A stretch of DNA of 64,000 nucleotides from Candidatus Altiarchaeota archaeon (GCA_038891095.1 JAWAEV010000001.1:196468-260467); one strand, 5' to 3'; counted from the first letter of the stretch, positions 1,999 to 18,560 are shown. Notes: a model not told the origin generated them from the sequence alone. Translations and numbers: made by a program.

Positions 1999-3267
1999 TT
2001 ATTTTAAACCTAAACTTCTCTTAACTATTGCCTTTATCTCCTCTGGTGGATAGCCAATTCTTATCAATCTTGTTGTGCCCCTTATACCTTTACCTGAGAT
2101 GCGAGTTGTTATTAAGCCTAACATTTCTAACTCATTCAAATATTCAGAAAATTGCCTTGATGTTCTTGGCTGTCTATGAAGTAATTTACAATTTTCCTCA
2201 TAAGCTTCATAAACCTCGCCTGTGAATAAATCACCACTTTCTTTATATTCGCTTGGAAGTCTTTTATAAATTCCTCCCCTTGAGGTTAGAGAAGCAATTG
2301 AGTAAAGGACAATTTGTTGATGTTCAGGTAAGGTTGAGATTGCCTCTGACATTATGTCTTCCTCAACAGCGTCTTTTGCTTTTTCAACATATTCAAGTGT
2401 TATCCTCTCTTTATTATCTCTTTCAGCAAGCTCACCTGCTTTTTTTAGTAGTCTTAATGCATAACGAGCATCGCCATCTTGAGCTGCAAATGCAGAAATT
2501 TTTTCTATAACTCCTTCGGATATGACACCGCTTCTAAAGCTTGCATTTACCCTTTGTCTTAAAATTGTTCCAAGTTGCAATGCATTATATGGCTTAAAAA
2601 TTTTCTCTTCTTGACATAGGGTTGATTTAGTTCTTGGATCAAGATGATTCATAACTCTGATGTCATTACTCATACCTATAATTGAGACATGCCCTTTAGG
2701 CAGCTCATCATTAATTCTCGTTAAAATATAAATTAGGTCATTAAGTCCTTTAGCTACCATATCGATTTCATCTAAGACAAGTATTAAATTGAGGGAATTT
2801 GTCTTAACAACTTTATATAAACGGTCATATAAATTTGCAGGGTCCATGCCAGTGAGAGTTCTATCTTTCCTATCACCAAGCGGAGTGTTCTGCAATGGTG
2901 GTTTGTTGAGAGCATCGTCTTCTAAAGCACTTAACAATACCTGGTATTTTGAATTTCTTATCTTACAGTTCATATAAACTGACCTTACTAAAGCATTTTT
3001 AACATTTTTCTCCGGGTTATTTACAAATTCATCAAGTTTTCTAAGAACATATTTAACAACACATGTCTTCCCAGTTCCAGGTTTTCCATAAATAAACAAA
3101 TTGTCCGGCTTTTCATTTTTTAATACAGGTGCTATAATTCTCGTGATCTCTCTAACTTCATTCTCTCTATGTGGCAATTCTTCTGGAACATAATGTGATG
3201 ATAATGCCTCTTTATTAATAAAAATTTTACTTCCCTTTAGCTCTGTTTCGAATATATTGCTTGACAT
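1999..3267 (-). CDS. cdc6: Orc1/Cdc6 replication initiator
   Basis: LPHRE, Walker A GKPGTGKT, Walker B LDEID, GDAR sensor, C-terminal wHTH (LNELEMLGLI). Confidence 0.95.
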   Translation of the reverse strand: MSSNIFETELKGSKIFINKEALSSHYVPEELPHRENEVREITRIIAPVLKNEKPDNLFIYGKPGTGKTCVVKYVLRKLDEFVNNPEKNVKNALVRSVYMNCKIRNSKYQVLLSALEDDALNKPPLQNTPLGDRKDRTLTGMDPANLYDRLYKVVKTNSLNLILVLDEIDMVAKGLNDLIYILTRINDELPKGHVSIIGMSNDIRVMNHLDPRTKSTLCQEEKIFKPYNALQLGTILRQRVNASFRSGVISEGVIEKISAFAAQDGDARYALRLLKKAGELAERDNKERITLEYVEKAKDAVEEDIMSEAISTLPEHQQIVLYSIASLTSRGGIYKRLPSEYKESGDLFTGEVYEAYEENCKLLHRQPRTSRQFSEYLNELEMLGLITTRISGKGIRGTTRLIRIGYPPEEIKAIVKRSLGLK

Positions 3268-6052: not shown

Positions 6053-8066
6053 TTTTCCACACTACTTAGTACTTCTCAAACACCTAAAAATATGCAAGTA
6101 TCAACATTATGGTATACCATGTTTCCACACTACTTAGTACTTCTCAAACCAACAGTATCGGCATGGGTGATAGACGAAAGTGTATTTAAGTTTCCACACT
6201 ACTTAGTACTTCTCAAACATGCACCATAAAATTTTACACCCAAGGGCCCATCTTTTGAGTTTCCACACTACTTAGTACTTCTCAAACAGGAGAATAGACA
6301 ATATAGAGGAAGGATTGGAAATAGTAAGTTTCCACACTACTTAGTACTTCTCAAACTCAGAGAAAAATTAAAATCAGTTAAAGGGAAAGAAGAGGGTTTC
6401 CACACTACTTAGTACTTCTCAAACATATGAATTAATAAGTATGACCTGGTGGAATATGATTTCTGTTTCCACACTACTTAGTACTTCTCAAACAGAGAAG
6501 AAGTTTAAAGACATAAAGATAAAGAAATTAAGAGTTTCCACACTACTTAGTACTTCTCAAACACAAATAACGAGAAGGTTAAAGCAAAATGGTTGGTATG
6601 GTTTCCACACTACTTAGTACTTCTCAAACTTCGAGAGAACGGGGATTATAATGCAGTGATAGAAGCGTGTTTCCACACTACTTAGTACTTCTCAAACTGG
6701 AGAGATGGATAAATGAAAAGTTAGAAGAGTGCAGAAGGTTTCCACACTACTTAGTACTTCTCAAACTGGAAAACCATCAGAGAGCTAAAAGATAAGTTAA
6801 GGGAGTTTCCACACTACTTAGTACTTCTCAAACTATGAAATATCAGATTTTAAAGAGACTGATGATGCGCTTCCAGTTTCCACACTACTTAGTACTTCTC
6901 AAACATGAATAAAGAATTTGGTAAGATTTATAATCTGACTGAAAAAGCGTTTCCACACTACTTAGTACTTCTCAAACTCTCCCCCATCGACGGTTTCTTT
7001 TCATTTTCTTCTTTATGTTTCCACACTACTTAGTACTTCTCAAACCTGCGTTGGCAATATGGAAAGCAGATCCAAGAAATTCAAGTTTCCACACTACTTA
7101 GTACTTCTCAAACTCTAAATGTGAGGTGAAATAAAATGGAATTTATATTATTAGTTTCCACACTACTTAGTACTTCTCAAACTAATAAAATAACAGACAC
7201 TGGAAGTTATCGCATTGGTATAGTTTCCACACTACTTAGTACTTCTCAAACCTATAGCGCAACGATCGAAGCCTACCGAAAGGTAGGCGGTTTCCACACT
7301 ACTTAGTACTTCTCAAACAACAATCTCTGGAGTTTTAAATAGGTCGGGTATCCCTGCGTTTCCACACTACTTAGTACTTCTCAAACTGGAAACGTGGATC
7401 AATAAAACGATAGAAAGAGCAAGAGTTTCCACACTACTTAGTACTTCTCAAACTCTCTTCCTCAGGAATTGCTAAACTCCAGAGCAATCTCTGGTTTCCA
7501 CACTACTTAGTACTTCTCAAACGAAATTAATTGAAAGTAAAAAGGAGGAGGTTATATTGATGTTTCCACACTACTTAGTACTTCTCAAACTAAAAGAGGC
7601 ACTGGATAAGAGAGCACGAGTGTTTCTGCTCGTTTCCACACTACTTAGTACTTCTCAAACGCAAGTAAGAGAACAAACGACATTCAAGAGTTAGAAAAAG
7701 TTTCCACACTACTTAGTACTTCTCAAACGAGAAGAGAGAAGCATTGAACACGAACGACGTGTTCAAGTTTCCACACTACTTAGTACTTCTCAAACGAGCA
7801 AGAAGCAATAAATACTGCTGACATTTATAATGGAGTTTCCACACTACTTAGTACTTCTCAAACACAAGGAACCCGAAAGTTTCTTGCAAGACGCTTTAAA
7901 AGCGTTTCCACACTACTTAGTACTTCTCAAACAAAAATGAAAAAAATGAAAGTATTGACTCTATTGTCGAGTTTCCACACTACTTAGTACTTCTCAAACA
8001 ATTTAAATAACATTAACAAATTTAGAAGTATAATTGAGTTTCCACACTACTTAGTACTTCTCAAAC
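6053..8066 (-). CRISPR. CRISPR array, 30 repeats of 29 bp (GTTTGAGAAGTACTAAGTAGTGTGGAAAC on the minus strand), 29 spacers of 38-44 bp
   Basis: Counted exact repeats GTTTCCACACTACTTAGTACTTCTCAAAC on +; the leftmost copy (6053) is degenerate (TTTTCC) and marks the trailer; AT-rich leader on the cas2 side; the minus-strand repeat ends in GAAAC. Confidence 0.99.
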
Positions 8067-8190
8067 CAAGAGGGATAATACTTTATATATACTTATTTTT
8101 TTGTTTTTAAAAGGATAAAACTCAGTCGATCTAAAAATTAAGCTTTATTTAAAAAGGTCGACAAGATAGTCTCGCTGTCTTACGGGTTTA
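8067..8190 (-). promoter_or_regulatory. CRISPR leader with TATA-like box and GTCGAYCT inverted repeat
   Basis: Minus-strand TATATAAAG close to the first repeat; GTCGATCT (8125-8132) and AGGTCGAC (8155-8162) form an inverted pair. Confidence 0.75.
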
Positions 8191-8193
8191 ATT

Positions 8194-8451
8194 TCACAGT
8201 ATTCTACTCATCTGCTTTGATACACCAATTTCTGTCCTTCTCAAGAATTTATCACTCTTTAGTGTATAGATTATGACTCTATCTTCTTCAGCCAGATTTT
8301 CTTCAAACCATTCAACTATTTCTTTAAATTGAAGTTTTGTTAATTTTCCTTCAAAGACAGAATTTTGTCTCCAATAGAGATATTGGTAAAGAAATTTATT
8401 TACTTTCACAACCCTTTCAACAGAAATGTCATAAACAATTATTGCGTACAT
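8194..8451 (-). CDS. cas2: CRISPR-associated Cas2
   Basis: IIVYDIS, QNSVFEG motifs; adjacent to array. Confidence 0.96.
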   Translation of the reverse strand: MYAIIVYDISVERVVKVNKFLYQYLYWRQNSVFEGKLTKLQFKEIVEWFEENLAEEDRVIIYTLKSDKFLRRTEIGVSKQMSRIL

Positions 8452-8457
8452 TTATTA

Positions 8458-9432
8458 TTACCACCACATCTTAAAACTTTTGTATTCCTTATTCCCAAGA
8501 ATATGATCAATCAACTTTTGACATTCTATCCTTATGATCTCAGTATAATTAACTTTCCTTCCAAGTCCTGGGTAGAAAATTGTTGTAGATAATTTTTTAT
8601 CAAAAGCTTCAATGAATATCTTTTTTCCTTTATTGTTGAGAAGGACTCCGCCTTCAACTTTTTCAAAGCAATCTTTATCAATTTCTTTTTTATTCACCAA
8701 AGAGAATATTGTTCTAGAAACAAACAATGGTTTAAAAATTTCTGCTATATCCAAAGCCAAAGAAAATCTTCTCTCTGAAGGCTCATGCAGAAAAGAAATC
8801 GCAGGATTTAAGTATGTACGATAAATTTCACCTAAACATTTTGTATAAAGTAAGGCATTCCCAAAGCTTATTAATGAATTGACTTCGTTGCTTGGCGGCC
8901 TTTTTTCTCGTTTTATAAGTTTAAATCCTCTCAGAATTTTGTCAAATGAGTTATAGTAGTTACTCCAAATTCTACCCTCTATTGACATCAGTTCAGGAAT
9001 GTTAGAGCATTTCTCTATATCTAAAGCTTCTATAACTTCAGTGTTTATATCTCTTCCTCTGTTTTTATAATACTCTAAATTTTTCAGGATATTATGTTTT
9101 ATTCCTCTCACTATTTCCTTCGCTATTTTTATTCTCTTTTCATTGTCAAGGTAATGTTCTGCTTGCTTTACAATAACATTCCCAGATATTAAAAATTCTC
9201 TTGGATATAAAGTTCCTTGATACCAGCCATACATGCTATAGAAATGTATGGGTATTTGTTTTTTCATTAAGTAACTTAAGCAGCCACTTTTTATTGTAAC
9301 TCTTGTGCAACATATTACTTCTGAAATGGAATTTATTGGCACTGCTTTTTTTCCTTCAAAATTTTGGAAGAATAAAGTACTTTTATTTCTGTATAAAATA
9401 CCTTCATTTAGCAAATATACTGTTTCTTTCAT
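8458..9432 (-). CDS. cas1: CRISPR-associated Cas1 (I-B-like, no RT or Cas4 fusion)
   Basis: IEGR, N-x-LISFGN, SFLHEP, LDIAEIFKP; ATG at 9432. Confidence 0.96.
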   Translation of the reverse strand: MKETVYLLNEGILYRNKSTLFFQNFEGKKAVPINSISEVICCTRVTIKSGCLSYLMKKQIPIHFYSMYGWYQGTLYPREFLISGNVIVKQAEHYLDNEKRIKIAKEIVRGIKHNILKNLEYYKNRGRDINTEVIEALDIEKCSNIPELMSIEGRIWSNYYNSFDKILRGFKLIKREKRPPSNEVNSLISFGNALLYTKCLGEIYRTYLNPAISFLHEPSERRFSLALDIAEIFKPLFVSRTIFSLVNKKEIDKDCFEKVEGGVLLNNKGKKIFIEAFDKKLSTTIFYPGLGRKVNYTEIIRIECQKLIDHILGNKEYKSFKMWW

Positions 9433-9537
9433 TGCTAACAATTATAAAAATTTCAAATATTTATATAATTGCCATAACTGTTAGCCTATATGACTAATAT
9501 TTAAAGGGTCTCTTTTTAAGCACTCATAAGTAATAAT

Positions 9538-9557
9538 TACCATAAATATTTTTGGTA
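9538..9557. promoter_or_regulatory. 20-bp near-perfect palindrome, candidate operator
   Basis: TACCATAAAT/ATTTTTGGTA (9 of 10 pairs), 3 bp before the ATG of the CARF-wHTH gene in the divergent cas1/csm promoter region. Confidence 0.5.
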
Positions 9558-9560
9558 GAT

Positions 9561-10199
9561 ATGACAATAATGTTCGTTCCTGTTGGCGAACAAATAAAAC
9601 CAATATACGAAGGCTTCAAATATGTTAAGAATGTTGACAAAGTTTATTTATTAGCTTCTAAAAAAACCATAGGATATGCCAGTGAAGTGAGCGAAAAGAT
9701 AGGTGAGATTTACAACACAGAAATTCTTGATGTTACTCCAGAAGAACTTGACAATGTTATCTGCAAACTAATAGAAGTTGCAGAAAAACATAAAAAAGAT
9801 AAAGTGGTTTCTAATGTAACAGGAGGGACAAAAATAATGTCTCTCTCATGTTATATTTTATGCTCATATCTTGGCGGTGATGCATTTTATATCTTCAAGA
9901 CTGATGAGGGTAAAATGAGATACATAGAAATGCCTGTTCTAAAGATAAAATTAAATTCAATTATAGAGGAAAAATCAACTCGAAGTAGAATATTGGAAAA
10001 GCTAATGGAGAGAGAGTATAGCTCTTTAACTTCATTAGCAAAAGAATTAAGAATAAAAAATTCGACTTTAAGTGCTTTGCTTGATGATCTAAGTGAGCAA
10101 GGTCTCATAAAACTAAAAAGAGAAGGGAGGAAATTAAAAATTGAAATTTCAAAAACAGGAAAGATAATTTACAAAATCAGAAAGTTCAAAAATGAATGA
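9561..10199 (+). CDS. csa3: CARF + winged-helix transcriptional regulator (Csa3-like)
   Basis: CARF motif NVTGGTKIM; C-terminal wHTH SLTSLAKEL..STLS..L..L.EQGLI; overlaps the cas10 start. Confidence 0.82.
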   Translation: MTIMFVPVGEQIKPIYEGFKYVKNVDKVYLLASKKTIGYASEVSEKIGEIYNTEILDVTPEELDNVICKLIEVAEKHKKDKVVSNVTGGTKIMSLSCYILCSYLGGDAFYIFKTDEGKMRYIEMPVLKIKLNSIIEEKSTRSRILEKLMEREYSSLTSLAKELRIKNSTLSALLDDLSEQGLIKLKREGRKLKIEISKTGKIIYKIRKFKNE

Positions 10200-12597
10200 T
10201 GAAGAGAGAATTTTAATTTTAGGAGCATTGTTGCATGATATCGGGAAATTTCTCGAAAGAGCAGGATTTACAGAAAAAATAGAGGACAATAATGTTAGTT
10301 ATAAGCATCCAATGATTGGAGCATATTTTCTAGATTATCTAAACTTAGGTGAAGATATTGTCAATTTAGTTCTATTCCATCATAACCCAGAGCATGCCCC
10401 AAAGAATATAAAAAATTTGAGTTATATCCTTCAATTATCTGATTGGTTAAGTAGTGGTGAGAGAAAAAAATCTGAGGAGGAGATAGATGAAGGTAGGAGA
10501 TTTCAATGTATGATTTCTGTATTTAATAGAGTAAAAATAGAAAAAAATAACTCTGATCTAAGATATGAGGAGTGCCATAAGTATAATACAGTACCATTAA
10601 AGTTTAATAATTTAATATTCCCAAAAAAAGAACCAGACATCATAGATTATAAATATCTTTTTGAAGGAATTAAAAACAAGAACAATCAGAATTATAAATT
10701 ATTTTTATCAAATTTCAGAAAGGACATAACAGAAAAAAATATAGAAGACCCTGTAGTCCTTTTATCGTTATTACAAAAATATTGGTGGTGTGTGCCAGCA
10801 CAGACATATTCAAAAGAGCTTGAAGGGGGTAAATATCTCCCAGATATCTCTCTATTTGATCATTCTAAAACAACGTGCTCAATTGCGTTATGTTTATATA
10901 AGCTAAATAAAACAGGGGTCATAAATGGGGATATATTAAAGGAATTACTGGAAAATCCTCCATGGAAAGAGAATAGAAATCCAGAAGTATGGGAGAGGAA
11001 ACTATTTAAGTTGATTTATGGGGATATATCTGGCATTCAGGATTTTATTTATACTATAAGAACATCTGGGGCCGCTAAATCACTTAAAGGTAGATCATTA
11101 GCATTGGTTCTATTACAAAGATTTATAGCTGAGCATATTTTGATGAAGCTTAATCTACAGCTAACAAATCTTATCTTCTCTGGTGGAGGACATTTCTATA
11201 TACTTGCACCACTTGACCTCTGCGGAGAGAATATAGAAGATATAAAAAGAGAGATTAATAAAAAATTGTTTGAAAAATTTGGGACAAAGTTATATCTAAC
11301 GCTTGGTTATGTCGAGTTATGCCCAGAGGATTTTATAGGCAAGAATTTTTCTAATAAATGGAAAGAGGTTGCGGAGGAGAATAATAAACAGAAAATAAGG
11401 AAATATAAAGAACTAGGTTATGAGGAGATATTCAAAGAATTTGATATCGGCGGAAAAAGCAAAATTTGTGGTATCTGCGGCAGTAATAGAGAGGTGAATT
11501 ATAAGGATGATGAGATAGACGTATGTTCAAATTGTCATTCATTTAGAAATGTTGTCAGCTATCTAAAAGAGGTTCAAAATGAAGGAAGATTCAATATTTC
11601 AAAGATAAAAAAGGAGTTACCTATAATTTCAGATTTTGATATACTTCTAAATGATAATGTTTATTTAACACCGGATAATTTACCTTTTTTTTCTATTCCT
11701 ATTGGAATTCCTCATGGGAGAGATGGTAAAATAAAAGAATTTAACGAACTTGCAGAAGATGCAGAGAATGACACTGGAACAAGAAAGATAGCGATACTTA
11801 AGATGGACGTCGATAATCTTGGAAAAATTTTTACTCAAGGATTAGGTGAGGATGCTACTATTTCAAGGATGAGCACTCTTAGTAACATGTTATCCTTATT
11901 CTTTGAGGGTTATCTTAACGAATTTATAAGAAGTAGATATTCTGACGATGTCTATCTTATATATTCAGGAGGTGATGATACTCTAATTGTTTGTAGATGG
12001 GACAAGATGATTTATCTTGCATATGATATATACAAGGAGTTTAGAGCGTATACATGCAATAATCCAGATATAACTATCAGTGCAGGAATTGTGATTGTTG
12101 ATCCTAAATACCCACTAAGAAAATCAGTTGATGTGGCCCATCATCTTTTAGATGAAATTGCTAAAGAAGGTGATAAAAATGCTGTTGGTATCTTTGGGCA
12201 TAGAGTAAAATGGCGTATAGAAAATGATGGGGGTTCTAATGAGTTTGAGAAAGTTATAGAAATTGAAAGAATCCTTGTTAAATCAATTAAATCTTCCGCA
12301 TCAAAGCAATTGATCCAAAGAGTTAAGTCCTCTATAATTGATCTTGAAAAAGGACTGAATGGTATGGAAGTAGATTTGAAATATTATTGGAGGTTGAAGT
12401 ACTATCTTCATAGGAATTATTATAACGAGAAAGAAAATTGTTGGAAAATCAAAGAGATTGAGGATTTAAAGAAAAAAATATACAATGATATTCTCGACAG
12501 AAATGTATTCAATAAAGATGTTGAGTGTAATCCTTGGTTAATACCAATTGCAGCAAGGATTGCTGAATTAAAAACAAGAAAGGAGGTGAGAAAATGA
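10192..12597 (+). CDS. cas10: Type III-A Cas10/Csm1 with HD nuclease and cyclase palm
   Basis: LLHDIGK HD motif, GDISGIQDFIY, Zn CGIC..CSNC, MDVDNLG, YSGGDD. Confidence 0.97.
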   Translation: MNDEERILILGALLHDIGKFLERAGFTEKIEDNNVSYKHPMIGAYFLDYLNLGEDIVNLVLFHHNPEHAPKNIKNLSYILQLSDWLSSGERKKSEEEIDEGRRFQCMISVFNRVKIEKNNSDLRYEECHKYNTVPLKFNNLIFPKKEPDIIDYKYLFEGIKNKNNQNYKLFLSNFRKDITEKNIEDPVVLLSLLQKYWWCVPAQTYSKELEGGKYLPDISLFDHSKTTCSIALCLYKLNKTGVINGDILKELLENPPWKENRNPEVWERKLFKLIYGDISGIQDFIYTIRTSGAAKSLKGRSLALVLLQRFIAEHILMKLNLQLTNLIFSGGGHFYILAPLDLCGENIEDIKREINKKLFEKFGTKLYLTLGYVELCPEDFIGKNFSNKWKEVAEENNKQKIRKYKELGYEEIFKEFDIGGKSKICGICGSNREVNYKDDEIDVCSNCHSFRNVVSYLKEVQNEGRFNISKIKKELPIISDFDILLNDNVYLTPDNLPFFSIPIGIPHGRDGKIKEFNELAEDAENDTGTRKIAILKMDVDNLGKIFTQGLGEDATISRMSTLSNMLSLFFEGYLNEFIRSRYSDDVYLIYSGGDDTLIVCRWDKMIYLAYDIYKEFRAYTCNNPDITISAGIVIVDPKYPLRKSVDVAHHLLDEIAKEGDKNAVGIFGHRVKWRIENDGGSNEFEKVIEIERILVKSIKSSASKQLIQRVKSSIIDLEKGLNGMEVDLKYYWRLKYYLHRNYYNEKENCWKIKEIEDLKKKIYNDILDRNVFNKDVECNPWLIPIAARIAELKTRKEVRK

Positions 12598-13010
12598 ATG
12601 GAGGAAAGTATGAGAAAAAGGATTTTAATGAAGAAGTACGTTCTTTACTTAATGATGAAGAGATAGATAAAATTTTAAACTTAAAAGACGAAAATGTCGA
12701 ATTGTTTGTAAAAAAGGCAGAAGAATGTGCAAAAGAATTTAAGTTCTCTGCATCTAAACTAAGAAGTTTCTATGATCCTATAAAAGGAATGAAAGAATAC
12801 CAGAAAATAAAACTTTATTTATTGAAACCAAAGATTGCTTATGCTGTTGGAAAAGAAGAGAGGGAGAAGAGATTAGAATTAAAAAAATTCCAAAAAACAA
12901 TGGAAAAACTAATCGAAAAGACTAATGAAAATAATTTCGAGAACTTTAAAAGTTTCTTTGAGGCAATTGTTGCTTATCATAAAATATATGGAGGTAAAAA
13001 ATGGAACTAA
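12594..13010 (+). CDS. csm2: Type III-A small subunit Csm2
   Basis: LRSFY, LKPKIAYAVG, FFEAIVAYHK. Confidence 0.95.
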   Translation: MNGGKYEKKDFNEEVRSLLNDEEIDKILNLKDENVELFVKKAEECAKEFKFSASKLRSFYDPIKGMKEYQKIKLYLLKPKIAYAVGKEEREKRLELKKFQKTMEKLIEKTNENNFENFKSFFEAIVAYHKIYGGKKWN

Positions 13011-13699
13011 TGGGAAAATTTTTCATACATGGGGATATCAAAACAATTACTGGATTACATATCGGTGGACAAAAAGAAACATTGGATATCGGAGGGGTAG
13101 ATAATCCAATAATTAGAGATGGAAAAGGTAGAATCTATATTCCTGGGAGTTCCCTAAAGGGAAAAATAAGATGCTTATTGGAGAGAAAATATAGTACAAA
13201 AAAAACAAAAAAAGAAGGTGATCCATGTGGATGTGGAGAATGCCCGATATGTAAAATATTTGGTCCGCACTCAGATGATGTCAAAGAGCCGTCAAGAATA
13301 ATTATTAGAGATAGCTATTTGCTAGATGATGCAAAAACAACAGAAATAAAGTCTGAAAATATTATAGATAGAATCTCAGGTAAGGCACTACATCCAAGAG
13401 ATACTGAGAGAGTTCCAACTGATTCTAGGTTCAAGTTTGAGGTCATATTTAATATCTATGATGAAAATGCAGATATAGAGTTGATAAAGAAGTTCATTGA
13501 AGGGATGGAATTACTTGAGGATGATTATCTTGGCGGTTCTGGTTCAAGAGGATATGGAAAAATTAAATTCGAGGACATATCACTATCTTACAAAAAAAAG
13601 GAGTACTACGAAGGAGATGAAACTAAAAAAATGAATATTCCAGATATAAAAGGAATAAAAGAACTTAGAGAGAAATTAAATGAACTTAAATTCTCTTGA
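13001..13699 (+). CDS. csm3: Type III-A backbone RNase Csm3
   Basis: TGLHIGG, catalytic GGVDNP, IPGSSLKGK, YLGGSGSRGYG. Confidence 0.96.
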   Translation: MELMGKFFIHGDIKTITGLHIGGQKETLDIGGVDNPIIRDGKGRIYIPGSSLKGKIRCLLERKYSTKKTKKEGDPCGCGECPICKIFGPHSDDVKEPSRIIIRDSYLLDDAKTTEIKSENIIDRISGKALHPRDTERVPTDSRFKFEVIFNIYDENADIELIKKFIEGMELLEDDYLGGSGSRGYGKIKFEDISLSYKKKEYYEGDETKKMNIPDIKGIKELREKLNELKFS

Positions 13700-13701
13700 A
13701 A

Positions 13702-14685
13702 ATGAAGATAGTAAAATTATTCCCTGCAGAAGATGGTAAATATCATTTTGGAGACCATATGTTAGAATCTACGTCACTAATATTCCACTCAGACTCTCTA
13801 TTTAGTGCAATTATAAATAACTACAGAAAATTATACCCCATTAATGTAAAAGAGGACGTAGAACATCTAAAGAACATAAAGATATCCTCGGTATTCCCAG
13901 CATATGATGATGTGTTATTTATTCCAAGACCGATAACAAAATTAAATTTTGGTAAAAAGATGGAAAACTATATTGAAAAGAAATCTAAAGATATTAAAAA
14001 TATAGAGTTTATATCTCTAAAAGCACTTAGAGACCATAATAATGGAACTTTGGATTTTAATATTGAAACTGTAATTGATAAAAAATTTCTTATTTCAAAA
14101 GATGAAGATAAAAGGGAGAATATTTTTTTTGAGATAACTGAAGAAAAGGTAGGAATAAATCGTACAAATAATAAAGCATCTGAAGGAAATTTATTTGTTA
14201 TTTCGTATGTAAAACCACAGGATAATACTTACTTCTATTTTTTCTTAGATGAAAAAGTAGAAAATGACATTAAAAAGAAACTTTATGCTTCAATTCGATT
14301 AATTGCTGACGAGGGACTTGGTGGTGAGAGAACTAGTGGTGCCGGTTTATTTGACGAAATTAAAATTGAGGATTATAATGGATTTGAAAATTATTATATT
14401 GATTCTAATTATAATATGTCACTTTCGCTAGTGTTTCCAAAAGATAAAACAGAATTTGAATGTGCTGAGACATATCAATTAGTTGAGAGGAAAGGATTTA
14501 TTTATTTTGCAAAAGGAAGTGGCTCAAGAAAAAAAGGTATATTAATGATTAAGGAAGGTAGCATCTTTAAAGAAAATATTGAAGGTAAGGTTATAGATGT
14601 GTCCCCAAATGATGAATGTACTATTTGTAAATTTGGTCGATTTTTTGGTATACCGATAAAATATATTGAAAATGATCCAAAATAG
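13702..14685 (+). CDS. csm4: Type III-A Csm4
   Basis: HFG, HSDSLFSA, ISSVFP, GLGGERTSGAG. Confidence 0.93.
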   Translation: MKIVKLFPAEDGKYHFGDHMLESTSLIFHSDSLFSAIINNYRKLYPINVKEDVEHLKNIKISSVFPAYDDVLFIPRPITKLNFGKKMENYIEKKSKDIKNIEFISLKALRDHNNGTLDFNIETVIDKKFLISKDEDKRENIFFEITEEKVGINRTNNKASEGNLFVISYVKPQDNTYFYFFLDEKVENDIKKKLYASIRLIADEGLGGERTSGAGLFDEIKIEDYNGFENYYIDSNYNMSLSLVFPKDKTEFECAETYQLVERKGFIYFAKGSGSRKKGILMIKEGSIFKENIEGKVIDVSPNDECTICKFGRFFGIPIKYIENDPK

Positions 14686-15721
14686 TTTGGAATTAATATG
14701 TGAAACTCCGGTACACATTGGGAATGGTAAAAAATATACATTTTTAGACTACTTCTTGGATGGTGGATTTATACATATAATTGACACTGAGAAGATATTT
14801 GATGACATAAATAAAATTGAAGTTATAGATGGGTTATGTAGAGATATAGAAAATAAAATCATAAATGGTCAAGCACAAATAGACATCAGAGAGTTCTTTG
14901 GCCAATATGGAATAGATCCATGGAGATACGTAATCAAAAAGATAAGAACAAATGTGAAACCATCAAGAAGAGTTCAGATATCTCAATTTATAAATCAGAA
15001 TGGAAATTGTTATATCCCTGGAAGTTCTATTAAAGGTGCAATAAGAACCGCATATCTATTCGATTACTATGACAAAGACATTGATAAATTAGTCAAAATT
15101 TTAGAGGATCAAAGAATACGAAATAAATACAAAAAACTTAATGAAGAAGCAATAGGTGGTATAGAGGAGGATATTTTTAGACATATCCAAGTAACGGACT
15201 CTAGTTATATTAATAAAAATAATTTTATCGTTATAGAAGCAAAAAGGTATAATAACATAAAGAAGCAATGGGGAAATCCTGTATATTTAGAAGTAATAGA
15301 CAAAGAAACACGTATTGAATTCAATGTAAAGATCGATGAAAGGTTTAAGAAATCAATTAATGATATTATGTCTTGGTGTAATAATTTATCTAAAATTATT
15401 GCGGAATACGAGATGAATAATAGATATAATAGCAATGACTTGAAAAAATATTATAAGTCTTTATATGATAACATTAAAGAAGACGGTGAGCATTTCTACT
15501 TGAATCTCGGATTTGGCGGTGGGCATATAACAAAAACAGTATATCTTCTATTATGGAAATACAAGAAAGATTTGAAATTAATAAGAGGTTTACTTAAAAT
15601 TGAAAAACTAATAAAGAAAAGTATGAGGGTAAACAATTTCTATGAATTTCCAAGAACGAGAGTTATCTTCAATAATCTCCCAATAGGTTGGGTAAAAATA
15701 AGTAAATTAAAGAATGTTTGA
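14672..15721 (+). CDS. csm5: Type III-A Csm5
   Basis: TPVHIGNG, YIPGSSIKGAIRTA, LGFGGG, PRTR...GWV. Confidence 0.93.
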   Translation: MIQNSLELICETPVHIGNGKKYTFLDYFLDGGFIHIIDTEKIFDDINKIEVIDGLCRDIENKIINGQAQIDIREFFGQYGIDPWRYVIKKIRTNVKPSRRVQISQFINQNGNCYIPGSSIKGAIRTAYLFDYYDKDIDKLVKILEDQRIRNKYKKLNEEAIGGIEEDIFRHIQVTDSSYINKNNFIVIEAKRYNNIKKQWGNPVYLEVIDKETRIEFNVKIDERFKKSINDIMSWCNNLSKIIAEYEMNNRYNSNDLKKYYKSLYDNIKEDGEHFYLNLGFGGGHITKTVYLLLWKYKKDLKLIRGLLKIEKLIKKSMRVNNFYEFPRTRVIFNNLPIGWVKISKLKNV

Positions 15722-15786
15722 AGAGAACACTAAATCAATAGAATTTACTCAGCAGGGAGAACCATTGGGCTGGATGAAATTTGAGA

Positions 15787-16089
15787 ATGAATAAAATAAA
15801 TGCAGTAGTTGAGAAACTTAAGGAATATGGAGCGGAGAAGATAATCCTGTTTGGATCAGCTGCAAAGAGAGAGATAGATGAATATAGCGACCTAGATTTT
15901 TTAATGATCAAAAAAACAAGGCTGAGATTTTTGAGAAGATTGATAGAAGTTGGAAAAATTTTGAGAGAATTCGGTAAGGTAGATGTATTTATATATACCC
16001 CTAAAGAATTTGAAAAGATGAAAGAAATGAGAAATCCCTTTATTGAGAGAGCTTTAAAGGAGGGGAAGGTTGTATATGAAAAGAAATAA
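15787..16089 (+). CDS. Minimal nucleotidyltransferase (MNT)
   Basis: ILFGS-x10-DLD motif; paired with the downstream HEPN gene. Confidence 0.9.
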   Translation: MNKINAVVEKLKEYGAEKIILFGSAAKREIDEYSDLDFLMIKKTRLRFLRRLIEVGKILREFGKVDVFIYTPKEFEKMKEMRNPFIERALKEGKVVYEKK

Positions 16090-16480
16090 AGAAGATGCTT
16101 TAAGATGGTTTGAGCAAGCGAAACATGATTTTAGAGTAGCTGAAAATAATCTTAAATCTGGATTTTATGCAGATGCCTGTTTCATGTGCGAACAAGCTGC
16201 TCAGAAGGCATTGAAGGCATATCTTATCTACAATGGGAGGAGGTATATATGGGAGCATTCAATTCAAGAGTTAGCTAGGTTATCTATGGAACATGAAAAG
16301 AAATTTAGAAAGGTTATAGATGCTGGAATAATCCTTGATAGATTTTATATCCCTACGAGATATCCGGATGCATTAGCTCCACCAGCTATACCTTATAAGT
16401 CATATAGAAAAGAGGATGCATTGGAAGCAATAAAGCTAACTGAAGAAATAATTAGACTGGTGGGTGAAAAACTAAAGTAA
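16076..16480 (+). CDS. HEPN domain protein (MNT-HEPN pair)
   Basis: W...A..D...A, CF.CEQAAQKALKA, HS, YIPTRYPD pattern of archaeal HEPN. Confidence 0.9.
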   Translation: MKRNKEDALRWFEQAKHDFRVAENNLKSGFYADACFMCEQAAQKALKAYLIYNGRRYIWEHSIQELARLSMEHEKKFRKVIDAGIILDRFYIPTRYPDALAPPAIPYKSYRKEDALEAIKLTEEIIRLVGEKLK

Positions 16481-16519: not shown

Positions 16520-17827
16520 ATGAAAAAAGTTGCATTATTAATGACTGTTGGAACAGGAATTAAAGGTAGGGAAGAGGAGAGCAGAGATAGTCAAGGGCAC
16601 GGTATCGCTTTTGCTATAGAAAGATCAAATCCAGAAAAGATAGTTTTCTTTTGCACTAAGGAAAGTGAGAAAACTTTAGAGTATGTGTTAAGATATCTTA
16701 AAGATAATAAATTAAAGAAAATTTTTAATAGTTCAGAAAGAATTATGCTTAGAAGCTATTCTGATCCTATTCTTATAATAAGAGATATTAAACCAAAGTT
16801 TGAAGAGGCAAAAAGTAATAATGATAAAATAATTGTAGTTCCTACTTTTGGAACAAAAGCAATGACCTCAGTCATTTTCAACCTTGGAGTTTTATATAAG
16901 TCGGAGCTTTACTCTGTTGAAGGTGATCGCGGAGAGAATGGAATTGTCAAAAAAGGTACTGAAACTTGGCAAGAACAGAACGTATATCTGATTTTTGATA
17001 TGTTTTACTTTGATAAAGTAAAGGATTTTTTTAATAGAAATAACTTTGACGCATCATCTGAATATCTAAACAACATAATTTCAGATAAAATTGAGGAACT
17101 CAAAAAGAGCGAATTAAGAACTTTGATAGAAGGTTTTAGTTCTTGGGATAAATTTGATCATAAAAACGCATATATCAAATTGAAAGAATTAGAGAATGAA
17201 CTCAGGAAAAAGTTTGAGAGTAATATAGAATTTATTAAAGGGATATGTTCACTTGAGCATGAAATAAAAAATTTAGAGAAAAAAGGGAATAAAGATGAGA
17301 ATGTGAAACAAAAAAAGTGCAAATTAATTCAACTTTTGATGATAGATTTACTTGCTAATGCATCTCGCAGAATTTCTGAAGGAAGATATGATGATGCTGT
17401 TGCAAGACTCTACAGGTTGGTAGAGCTAATAGCTCAGTATAGGTTATATTCAAACTATAATCTCTCCACAAATGAATTTTTTGATGAGGTCTCAACATTG
17501 ATGGATCTATATAGGTATAGAGATAAATTTAATAATGAAGGTGAAATGGAAGAATATGTAGATAAGGAAGGCAAGTTAAAGATAGGACTAAAGAAATCTT
17601 ATTCTTTACTTGAAAAACTTGACGATGATATAGGTAAAAAATTTGTAGGAGACGAAGATATGAAAAAATTGTTGGGTATCAGAAATAACTCTATTTTAGC
17701 CCACGGTATAAACCCTGTGGACAAAAAAACTGCTGAAAATTTGTTATCTAAGGTAGAAAATATGATAAAAGGTATAATAGAAAACTACGAAAAATTGATA
17801 GAAGGAGCGAGATTTTCAAAACTTTAA
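16520..17827 (+). CDS. CARF-HEPN ancillary ribonuclease (TIGR02710/Csm6-like)
   Basis: MTVGT and TFGTKAM CARF motifs; YDDAVARLYRLVE; RNNSILAHG HEPN R-x-H motif. Confidence 0.88.
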   Translation: MKKVALLMTVGTGIKGREEESRDSQGHGIAFAIERSNPEKIVFFCTKESEKTLEYVLRYLKDNKLKKIFNSSERIMLRSYSDPILIIRDIKPKFEEAKSNNDKIIVVPTFGTKAMTSVIFNLGVLYKSELYSVEGDRGENGIVKKGTETWQEQNVYLIFDMFYFDKVKDFFNRNNFDASSEYLNNIISDKIEELKKSELRTLIEGFSSWDKFDHKNAYIKLKELENELRKKFESNIEFIKGICSLEHEIKNLEKKGNKDENVKQKKCKLIQLLMIDLLANASRRISEGRYDDAVARLYRLVELIAQYRLYSNYNLSTNEFFDEVSTLMDLYRYRDKFNNEGEMEEYVDKEGKLKIGLKKSYSLLEKLDDDIGKKFVGDEDMKKLLGIRNNSILAHGINPVDKKTAENLLSKVENMIKGIIENYEKLIEGARFSKL

Positions 17828-17846
17828 AATTTATCCATATTTAATT

Positions 17847-18560
17847 TTATCGTATCGGATTTATAAATCCGAAACCAAAAGAATTTTTCTCACCTAAACC
17901 ACAATCCATTATGAATTCGTAAAATTTTCTGTCTTCTCTTTTTATGTGAAACTTTTCTAAAAGAGACCAAACACTTCCTATAATTATAAACTTTCTATTA
18001 TTTTTTACATTTTCAATAGAAACTTCTTTTTTGAATTTTAATTTATCGAATATTCTCTCCTCAAGGGAATAATTGTCAGAATAAAATGCATTAAATTTTT
18101 TGACAGCGTTTTCCTCTAGTCTTTTAATAAAAAACTCTACGTTTCTATCCCTCTTAAAAGAGTAATAAAGATTTTTCTTGTTATCCTTATAAAGAACTAT
18201 AGGGCTTCCAGATATAAATCTGTTTTTCAATTTTAAATTCACTTCTTTGATATCTTTCACATAAATTTCGTGTGAGCCAAGTTTTAGGACCTCAGCACAC
18301 CTTAGAGACTCAGCTAATGCTTTAATAAAATTTTTGTTCGGTGATGATACCAAAAGCATTTTCGCTTCTTCGTTTTTAAAATCACTCACAGGGAAGATAT
18401 CAGAAAAGCAGAAGAATTTGAATTTTTTTGAGTCGTGAATTTTTGAGAAGTCGTTATCTTTTGTTTTTAGTAGAGAGTATATAAAGCCCTGAACCATGTG
18501 TTTGCTAATCTCCTCATAAGAAAAATCTTCAAGAGGTTCAAAGGTTATGATCAGTCTCAT
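17847..18560 (-). CDS. cas6: crRNA-processing endoribonuclease Cas6
   Basis: KFFCFS, C-terminal G-loop [11 protein letters not shown]. Confidence 0.94.

Follow-up and report, generated by a model that had tools for sequence, protein, structure and literature searches.

A type III-A CRISPR-Cas locus in an archaeal genome

We analysed a stretch of 64,000 nucleotides (the window) from a Candidatus Altiarchaeota archaeon (GCA_038891095.1 JAWAEV010000001.1:196468-260467), which carries a CRISPR array of 29 spacers beside a set of cas and csm genes. The metagenome-assembled genome of the host comprises 958,546 bases at 31% GC and is 93.65% complete, and the TFIIB, Orc1/Cdc6 and RFC genes within the window identify the host as archaeal. 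An original prediction, made from the sequence of the window, proposed that 9-12 of the spacers tile about 300 nt of a single open reading frame (ORF) of an invader. The array, the spacer numbering (S1 to S29, from the left), the coordinates and the plus-strand translations on which that proposal was built are all correct; the features are collected in Table 1.

The locus is a complete and ordinary type III-A (Csm) CRISPR-Cas system with a Cas1-Cas2 adaptation module. Cas10 has both the HD and the GGDD motifs, Csm2 to Csm5 are encoded in one operon (with matches to TIGR01870, TIGR02582, TIGR01903 and TIGR01899, every one above its cut-off), and the array is accompanied by cas6. It shares with other type III-A systems not only these components but also CARF proteins, Cas1-Cas2 and a leader and array lying downstream of cas2, and differs from them in having an archaeal host with a genome of about 1 Mb and a Cas1 of the I-B class. 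The TIGR02710-family CARF protein is likely a cyclic-oligoadenylate sensor or effector. No Cas3 was found above cut-off in the 93.65% complete genome, the best cas3_core match reaching 66.3 bits against a cut-off of 102.45; genes for Cascade were not searched for. Across the same genome there is no RVT_1 match, and Cas1 matches Cas1 families only; in contrast to systems in which a reverse transcriptase (RT)-Cas1 acquires spacers from RNA, an RT is neither fused to Cas1 nor encoded beside it. A crude k-mer screen of the genome revealed no second CRISPR array.

Table 1. Positions of the CRISPR-Cas features and of the spacers discussed in the text, counted from the first letter of the window.
Feature	Position	Strand	Description
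CRISPR array	6053-8067	-	29-nt repeat (GTTTCCACACTACTTAGTACTTCTCAAAC on +) in 30 copies; 29 spacers, each 38-44 nt long
Leader	8068-8193	-	AT-rich, 126 nt, between cas2 and first repeat; read from sequence
cas2	8194-8451	-	TIGR01573, 50.7 bits (cut-off 24.5)
cas1	8458-9441	-	Cas1b class, 327 aa, no reverse-transcriptase part; TIGR03641, 443 bits
Csa3-like CARF + HTH regulator	9552-10199	+	TIGR01884, 47.6 bits, under the family cut-off of 60.2
csm operon	10192-15721	+	cas10/csm1, csm2, csm3, csm4, csm5; profile matches
cas10/csm1	10192-12597	+	TIGR02578, 583 bits; HD at aa 15, GGDD at aa 593
Nucleotidyltransferase-like ORF and overlapping 136-aa ORF (no family)	15781-16480		Between csm5 and the CARF gene
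TIGR02710-family CARF protein	16520-17827	+	186.7 bits (cut-off 83.9)
cas6	17847-18560	-	TIGR01877, 121.9 bits
S9	6630-6668	+	Possible staggered homologue of S18: 16/23 nt, 5/7 aa
S10	6698-6737	+	Homologous to S20: same start base, 25/38 nt, 7/12 aa
S18	7252-7289	+	7-bp stem, GAAA loop, minimum free energy (MFE) -13.7 kcal/mol; possible homologue of S9
S19	7319-7357	+	Contig of run X1 runs on with non-repeat, non-S24 letters
S20	7387-7424	+	Homologous to S10
S21	7454-7493	+	3' end overlaps 5' end of S19
S23	7591-7631	+	9-bp stem with two G-U pairs on +, MFE -11.0 kcal/mol; no verified chain link
S24	7661-7699	+	Predicted placement after S19 unsupported
S25	7729-7766	+	Homologous to S26; perfect 9-bp stem, MFE -10.4 kcal/mol
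S26	7796-7834	+	Homologous to S25; 6-bp A/T stem at about the equivalent place
S27	7864-7903	+	8-bp stem with one G-U pair, MFE -8.5 kcal/mol; no verified chain link

Several spacers derive from the same or homologous sites

The predicted chain ran from S25 and S26, which were thought plausibly to precede it, through S21, S19, S24, S20/S10 and S9 to S18, with S11, S23 and S27 as possible extensions. We compared the spacer translations by ungapped BLOSUM62 alignment, using two series of 150 control sets each, one of shuffled spacers and one of sense-strand fragments drawn at random from host coding sequences (CDS). Two homologous peptide pairs are real and lie beyond chance. S10 (ERWINEKLEECR) and S20 (ETWINKTIERAR) score 37, and a best pair of at least 37 was seen in none of the 150 shuffled and one of the 150 host-CDS sets. 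S25 and S26 score 34, a value not reached by the second-best pair of any of the 150 shuffled or 150 host-CDS sets; they start at the same base, have 21 of 35 nt in common with an indel of one codon, and differ by conservative changes. Each pair has a single open frame in common.

The link from S21 to S19 is also real. The two spacers overlap in frame, with 9 nt exact and 10 of 11 matching overall, and an overlap of this quality was equalled 43 times in 1000 shuffled sets and 129 times in 1000 host-CDS sets; they also share an 11-nt reverse-complement match, and the two events together occurred in 0/300 shuffled and 2/300 host-CDS sets. The relation between S9 and S18 is of a different order, since its score of 25 is at chance level when taken alone (1.3-2.0 such pairs are expected per control set). 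That S9, S10 and S18, S20 stand in parallel order in the array lends it some support, noticed post hoc. The frame not used in the original prediction places a Leu codon and a stop codon at equivalent positions of S9 (TTA TAA, 6646-6668) and S18 (CTA TAG, 7252-7274). In S18 these codons precede the 7-bp GAAA hairpin, and the two spacers could represent the end of a gene followed by a terminator-like hairpin instead of lying inside a coding region. At the DNA level the top two to five overlaps are jointly raised, being equalled in 1-4.5% of host-CDS sets.

Against shuffled and host-CDS controls the chain as a whole fared unevenly: S21 with S19 and S10 with S20 hold as pairs, as does S25 with S26, but S9 with S18 does not exceed shuffled spacers, and S25 and S26, homologous though they are to each other, have no overlap evidence that would place them before S21. 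The junctions S19 to S24, S24 to S20/S10 and S10 to S9, and the extensions by S11, S23 and S27, amount to adjacency or weak overlaps of 2-8 nt. The step from S19 to S24 is contradicted by a natural sequence: in sequencing run X1 a contig with S19 has a loose end of 255 nt past position 7357, and its 30 printed letters match S24 at 7 of 30 positions (hand count).

Orientation of the array and sense bias of the spacers

The array appears to be transcribed from right to left, from the minus strand, starting at the leader on the cas2 side. Array, leader, cas2 and cas1 all run in one direction, on the minus strand. All 30 repeats are identical except the leftmost, with T for G at its first plus-strand base, and this degenerate copy is at the far end of the array, away from the leader. 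The leader contains a TATA-like run (TATATATAAAG on the minus strand) 15-25 nt upstream of the first repeat and is a putative promoter of the array, and the minus-strand repeat terminates in GGAAAC, resembling the GAAAC/G-type ends of well-studied archaeal repeats.

The plus strand of the spacers is rich in purines, with a fraction above 0.5 in 25 of 29 (mean 0.627; two-sided binomial, about 1e-4); for comparison, sense 39-mers from host CDS have a mean purine fraction of 0.564, with 74% above 0.5. Two members of the predicted chain, S21 (0.40) and S19 (0.49), are not purine-rich. On the plus strand, S16 (7114-7153) and S22 (7523-7561) each have a start codon preceded by a Shine-Dalgarno-like run. 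With transcription probably from the minus strand, a purine-rich plus strand and these start-containing spacers, the CRISPR RNAs (crRNAs) would most likely pair with mRNA-like strands, a property on which type III interference depends. Counts of stop-free frames fail to separate the strands (40 on plus, 50 on minus). S28 (7933-7970) translates like an N-terminus (MKKMKVLTLLS), and S3 (6219-6258) and S13 (6905-6948) open exactly on ATG. The spacers may be enriched in gene 5' ends, a feature also of published III-A hot spots.

Protospacer flanks are known for three spacers only, for S21 from S19 and for S19 and S2 from X1 contigs (that with S2 also runs on into non-repeat sequence), and they have no trinucleotide in common. 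The sequence GACAT begins 2 and 3 bases past the spacer end in the flanks of S2 (window 6189) and S19 (7357) respectively; it is missing from the flank of S21 and may be either a chance occurrence or a flank motif.

An excess of hairpin-forming spacers

Five of the 29 spacers fold at -7.5 kcal/mol or below (S18, -13.7; S23, -11.0; S25, -10.4; S27, -8.5; S21, -7.6), compared with 1.26 expected, and five such folders were equalled in 4 of 1000 sets in which each spacer was shuffled. Stems of at least 5 bp are present in 10 spacers, with 4.9 expected, a number equalled by one shuffle set in 300. The five strong folders all fall within S18-S27. When S21 and S19 are merged into a 68-nt sequence, the join extends a 5-bp stem to 11 perfectly paired bp around a 4-nt loop (z -2.8), and the printed X1 flank of S19 adds a 10-bp inverted repeat, read by eye. 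No Rfam family scored above threshold for any spacer, a search in which sequences this short carry little weight.

The merged region includes the peptide that was described as helix-turn-helix (HTH)-like in the original prediction. Because it lies on the perfect 11-bp palindrome, in spacers that are not purine-rich, this stretch may be non-coding, and the peptide a reading of structured sequence; by our estimate, about 32 open codons at this composition are not strong evidence for coding.

The sampled target space is restricted

To put the number of overlapping or homologous pairs (three robust and one weak) into context, random 39-mers were drawn in 4000 simulations, with an overlap of at least 9 nt defining a pair. 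With twelve 39-mers from a 300-nt source, about 14 pairs overlap, and four or fewer were seen in 0 of 4000 simulations; the near head-to-tail order proposed for 9-12 spacers over about 300 nt is unlikely under random sampling. Three to four pairs fit a source of about 1-3 kb if 12 spacers share it, and of 3-10 kb if 20-29 do, whereas a 30-kb target sampled by 29 spacers yields at least three pairs with a probability of 0.048. Overlaps between strongly diverged variants would escape this count. The target space is restricted, effectively to a few kb, and was sampled more than once. This part of the one-gene proposal stands; restricted sampling is not in itself evidence of one tiled ORF, and no ORF with the segments in the proposed order was found.

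Searches for the invader and the source sample

No protospacer was found in any of the collections searched, which comprised the host genome, isolate phages and plasmids, the host phylum, viral, metagenome and genome contigs, and two protein libraries; blastn-short and the other sequence searches with the spacers likewise recovered no single ORF in the predicted chain order in these collections. With blastn-short the host genome gave nothing exceeding 27 nt at 85%. The whole array, searched in distant mode against 50,697 phage and 72,556 plasmid records, gave best E-values of 0.6 and 0.5 respectively, which are noise. Among 61 species genomes of the host phylum, matches at the DNA level were confined to repeat-like sequences in two (G003 and G025), the former with a short related array of unrelated spacers. 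Exact searches of viral_contigs (IMG/VR) with S19, S21, S24, S2 and S25 gave no match for any of them, nor did 26 nt of S19 in metagenome_contigs (JGI).

Candidates from degenerate searches were rejected on inspection. Back-translated S19 matched 11 metagenome loci, which all represent the same conserved sequence read out of frame; their flanks do not resemble S21, and no other spacer matches them. A degenerate pattern of S10/S20, a gap and S9/S18 had no match in viral_contigs and one non-open chance match in genome_contigs (GTDB). The S25/S26 motif matched one viral locus that lacks any other spacer match, and the S10/S20 motif one viral locus without an open frame; we regard both as chance. 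The protein libraries were queried with window translations that read through spacer, repeat and spacer; they gave 1 and 30 word candidates with none scored, and later 2 and 10 matches, and all 10 inspected (P0011 was left out) are spurious ORFs across CRISPR arrays. With one mismatch, the S10/S20 motif matches a tyrosyl-tRNA synthetase (TyrRS) of one phylum genome (L030, G036:C78, 1269-2246), and the TyrRS motif of the phylum, E-x-W-I-[ND]-x-x-x-E-Y-W, resembles S10/S20 across 7-8 residues. The W is kept in 31 of 31 phylum TyrRS and missing in both S10 and S20, and the residues beside the motif match neither S24 nor S9; we judge the likeness to be coincidental.

The sequencing runs that contain the array are all labelled as hot-spring metagenome; no RNA run is listed among them, and the RNA run X3 yielded 0 contigs. 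Run X2 contributed one 154-nt piece of the same array. Run X1 contains a 35-letter insert between repeats that is absent from the set of 29 spacers (window 7526 / 6736), so that one or more arrays in the population differ from this one in spacer content. The source-run contigs were assembled at k=31 and traverse 29-nt repeats, and their depths and joints were therefore left uninterpreted.

Among neighbouring features, the nucleotidyltransferase-like ORF between csm5 and the CARF gene has weak MntA and HalB matches, below cut-offs, and with its overlapping partner may form a toxin-antitoxin-like or accessory pair. The orc1/cdc6 gene (1999-3267) lies about 3 kb from the array, and a replication origin may be located near the CRISPR locus. 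The k-mer screen of the genome (G000) also showed short tandem repeats of different sequence, with periods of 66-93 nt and 3-4 copies each, on contigs C4 (at about 18.3 kb), C8 (about 2.6 kb), C11 (about 0.1 kb) and C12 (about 12.9 kb), which, judged from k-mers alone, appear unlike CRISPR arrays.

Discussion

We propose that this array is a natural archaeal instance of the hot-spot acquisition known for type III-A systems, with re-acquisition from diverged relatives of an invader, and we assign this reading a probability of roughly 0.55. Cas1-Cas2, acting without an RT, would have acquired the spacers from invader DNA, yielding crRNAs complementary to the plus strand of the spacers, which resembles the sense strand of the targets. 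Among the 29, six to eight spacers would belong to three or four groups (S21 with S19, S10 with S20, S25 with S26, and perhaps S9 with S18), each derived from one stretch of at most 70 nt or from homologous stretches. The most likely cause would be acquisition that prefers promoter-proximal, transcribed and partially palindromic DNA, of the kind described for Streptococcus thermophilus III-A, with selection for crRNAs that pair with transcripts acting on top of it. Diverged relatives within a single invader family would have supplied the same sites again on separate occasions, with S9 and S10 older, S18-S21 later and S24-S27 latest, and this resampling would reduce the effective target space to a few kb.

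Three signatures of the published type III cases recur in the array: a probable sense bias, restricted and re-used sites, and an excess of hairpins. In S. thermophilus, III-A adaptation over-samples partially palindromic, hairpin-forming DNA and 5' leader regions, with single-strand origins, oriT, attenuator leaders and promoter regions all over-sampled by Cas1-Cas2, and spacers are reported to be acquired with no preference for a protospacer-adjacent motif or an orientation (Zhang et al. 2021, PMC8860593). A transcription-dependent hot spot directly past an early phage promoter, in a small cro-like gene, has been described in the same organism and is visible in natural spacers too, with no sign of priming reported (Noble-Molnar et al. 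2026, PMC13575424). As at these hot spots, the array described here has an excess of hairpin formers and resampled short stretches, spacers that cover translation starts (S16 and S22), and crRNAs probably biased to be complementary to sense strands; it differs in that it is one natural array known without its invader, in an archaeal and thermophilic host, and in that its best pair has no hairpin. In Thermus thermophilus, selection gives protective type III spacers a strong strand bias, and most of them come from an early region (Artamonova et al. 2020, PMC7515739). Both that system and this one are strand-biased and lack an RT, with spacers of 35-42 bp there and 38-44 nt here; in that study replicates rarely re-used identical spacers (Jaccard <2%), whereas here, in two pairs, the homologous sites have their start base in common. 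Primed adaptation in type I systems also gives clustered spacers from one region, but no Cas3 scores above cut-off in the 93.65% complete genome here, and priming was reportedly not seen for S. thermophilus III-A (PMC13575424). The selection of one dominant early transcript, the mechanism put forward in the original prediction, is viable, and by analogy with the published work a bias for acquiring promoter-proximal, hairpin-forming DNA would be an equally good one.

Several points weigh against hot-spot acquisition with resampling. The hairpin excess consists of five spacers at one threshold that was chosen after seeing the data, and the best pair, S10 and S20, is free of hairpins (MFE 0 and -0.6). 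At the DNA level none of the pairs individually exceeds the controls, S10 to S20 being equalled in 14% of host-CDS sets. The direction of transcription is opposed by sub-threshold Rfam CRISPR-DR matches on the plus strand (24 bits; gathering score, 35), which are weak evidence. No protospacer was recovered; promoter proximity, the timing of expression and the identity of the invader are assumptions, and the hot-spot biology that has been published is bacterial, its extension to an archaeal Cas1b being by analogy. Lastly, S25 sits directly beside S26, a placement that suits a pair of paralogous copies in one invader no less than a pair of variants.

This last point leads to an unlikely alternative, in which the homologous pairs represent a repeated gene or domain within one invader rather than diverged variants: S25 and S26 would have been acquired consecutively despite their limited nucleotide identity, and the conservative changes (L/I, V/I, F/Y) suit protein-coding paralogues. 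The members of S10/S20 and S9/S18, however, are 9-10 spacers apart in parallel blocks, for which two infection episodes are a better fit. The same conservative changes, and the single open frames common to S10/S20 and S25/S26, argue for coding and so against a rather improbable reading in which S18-S27 target a transcribed part of a small replicon that is dense in hairpins and mostly non-coding, for example a small structured RNA or, on a rolling-circle plasmid, the single-strand origin or replication-control leader, with the peptides being artefacts of choosing the one frame that is open. That reading draws on the perfect stem formed by S21 and S19 and the inverted repeat in the S19 flank, on the stems of 7-9 bp in S18, S23, S25 and S27, on the low purine content of S21 and S19, and on the aligned stops of S9 and S18 followed by the S18 hairpin, and III-A adaptation in S. 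thermophilus is known to over-sample such regions (PMC8860593); the lack of any Rfam family counts against it, to the small extent that such short spacers allow.

The proposal of an HTH-type ORF of about 100 aa, tiled by 9-12 spacers because the invader is tiny or one early transcript is dominant, we consider distinctly doubtful. It accounts for the link from S21 to S19 and for the two homologous pairs, the parallel array order of S9, S10 and S18, S20 is expected if both sites are close together in the invader, and the natural III-A hot spot in S. thermophilus is reported to be a small cro-like gene (PMC13575424). It is opposed by the deficit of overlapping pairs in the simulations, by the X1 contig that departs from S24, by the lack of overlap evidence at the other junctions between groups and by the failure of the S10/S20 then S9/S18 pattern to find an open match in viral_contigs or genome_contigs, and five or six perfect or near-perfect hairpins within about 300 nt would be odd for coding sequence. 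Highly improbable is that all of the relations reflect chance likeness among short A/G-rich, K/E-rich sequences. The DNA-level comparisons, the noise-level score of S9/S18 and the occurrence of the 9-nt overlap alone in 4-13% of control sets would fit such likeness, but the protein-level pairs (0/150 in each of the two control series), the joint S21/S19 event and the raised top two to five DNA overlaps do not.

Hot-spot acquisition with resampling can be taken further, as a long shot that we would not ourselves bet on: most of S18-S27 may come from a single transcribed segment, a few hundred nt long and dense in hairpins, in a small, so far unsequenced hot-spring archaeal replicon resampled from diverged variants, for which a rolling-circle plasmid origin, a control leader or a small structured RNA element are candidates. 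If true, this would be a natural structured-DNA hot spot of an archaeal III-A system, and the spacers alone would yield partial sequence of an unknown element.

The chaining of open-frame spacer translations is unreliable evidence for a gene. Laboratory work in two bacteria has shown that type III spacers end up coming from a narrow, transcribed and often hairpin-forming part of the invader, and natural archaeal cases would show how general such sampling is; a limited literature search, mostly at the level of titles, turned up no natural archaeal array of this kind. With its sense-biased spacers, resampled homologous sites and excess of hairpins, the array described here is a small, testable case, and recovery of the invader from the source sample would allow a direct test of the hot-spot idea.

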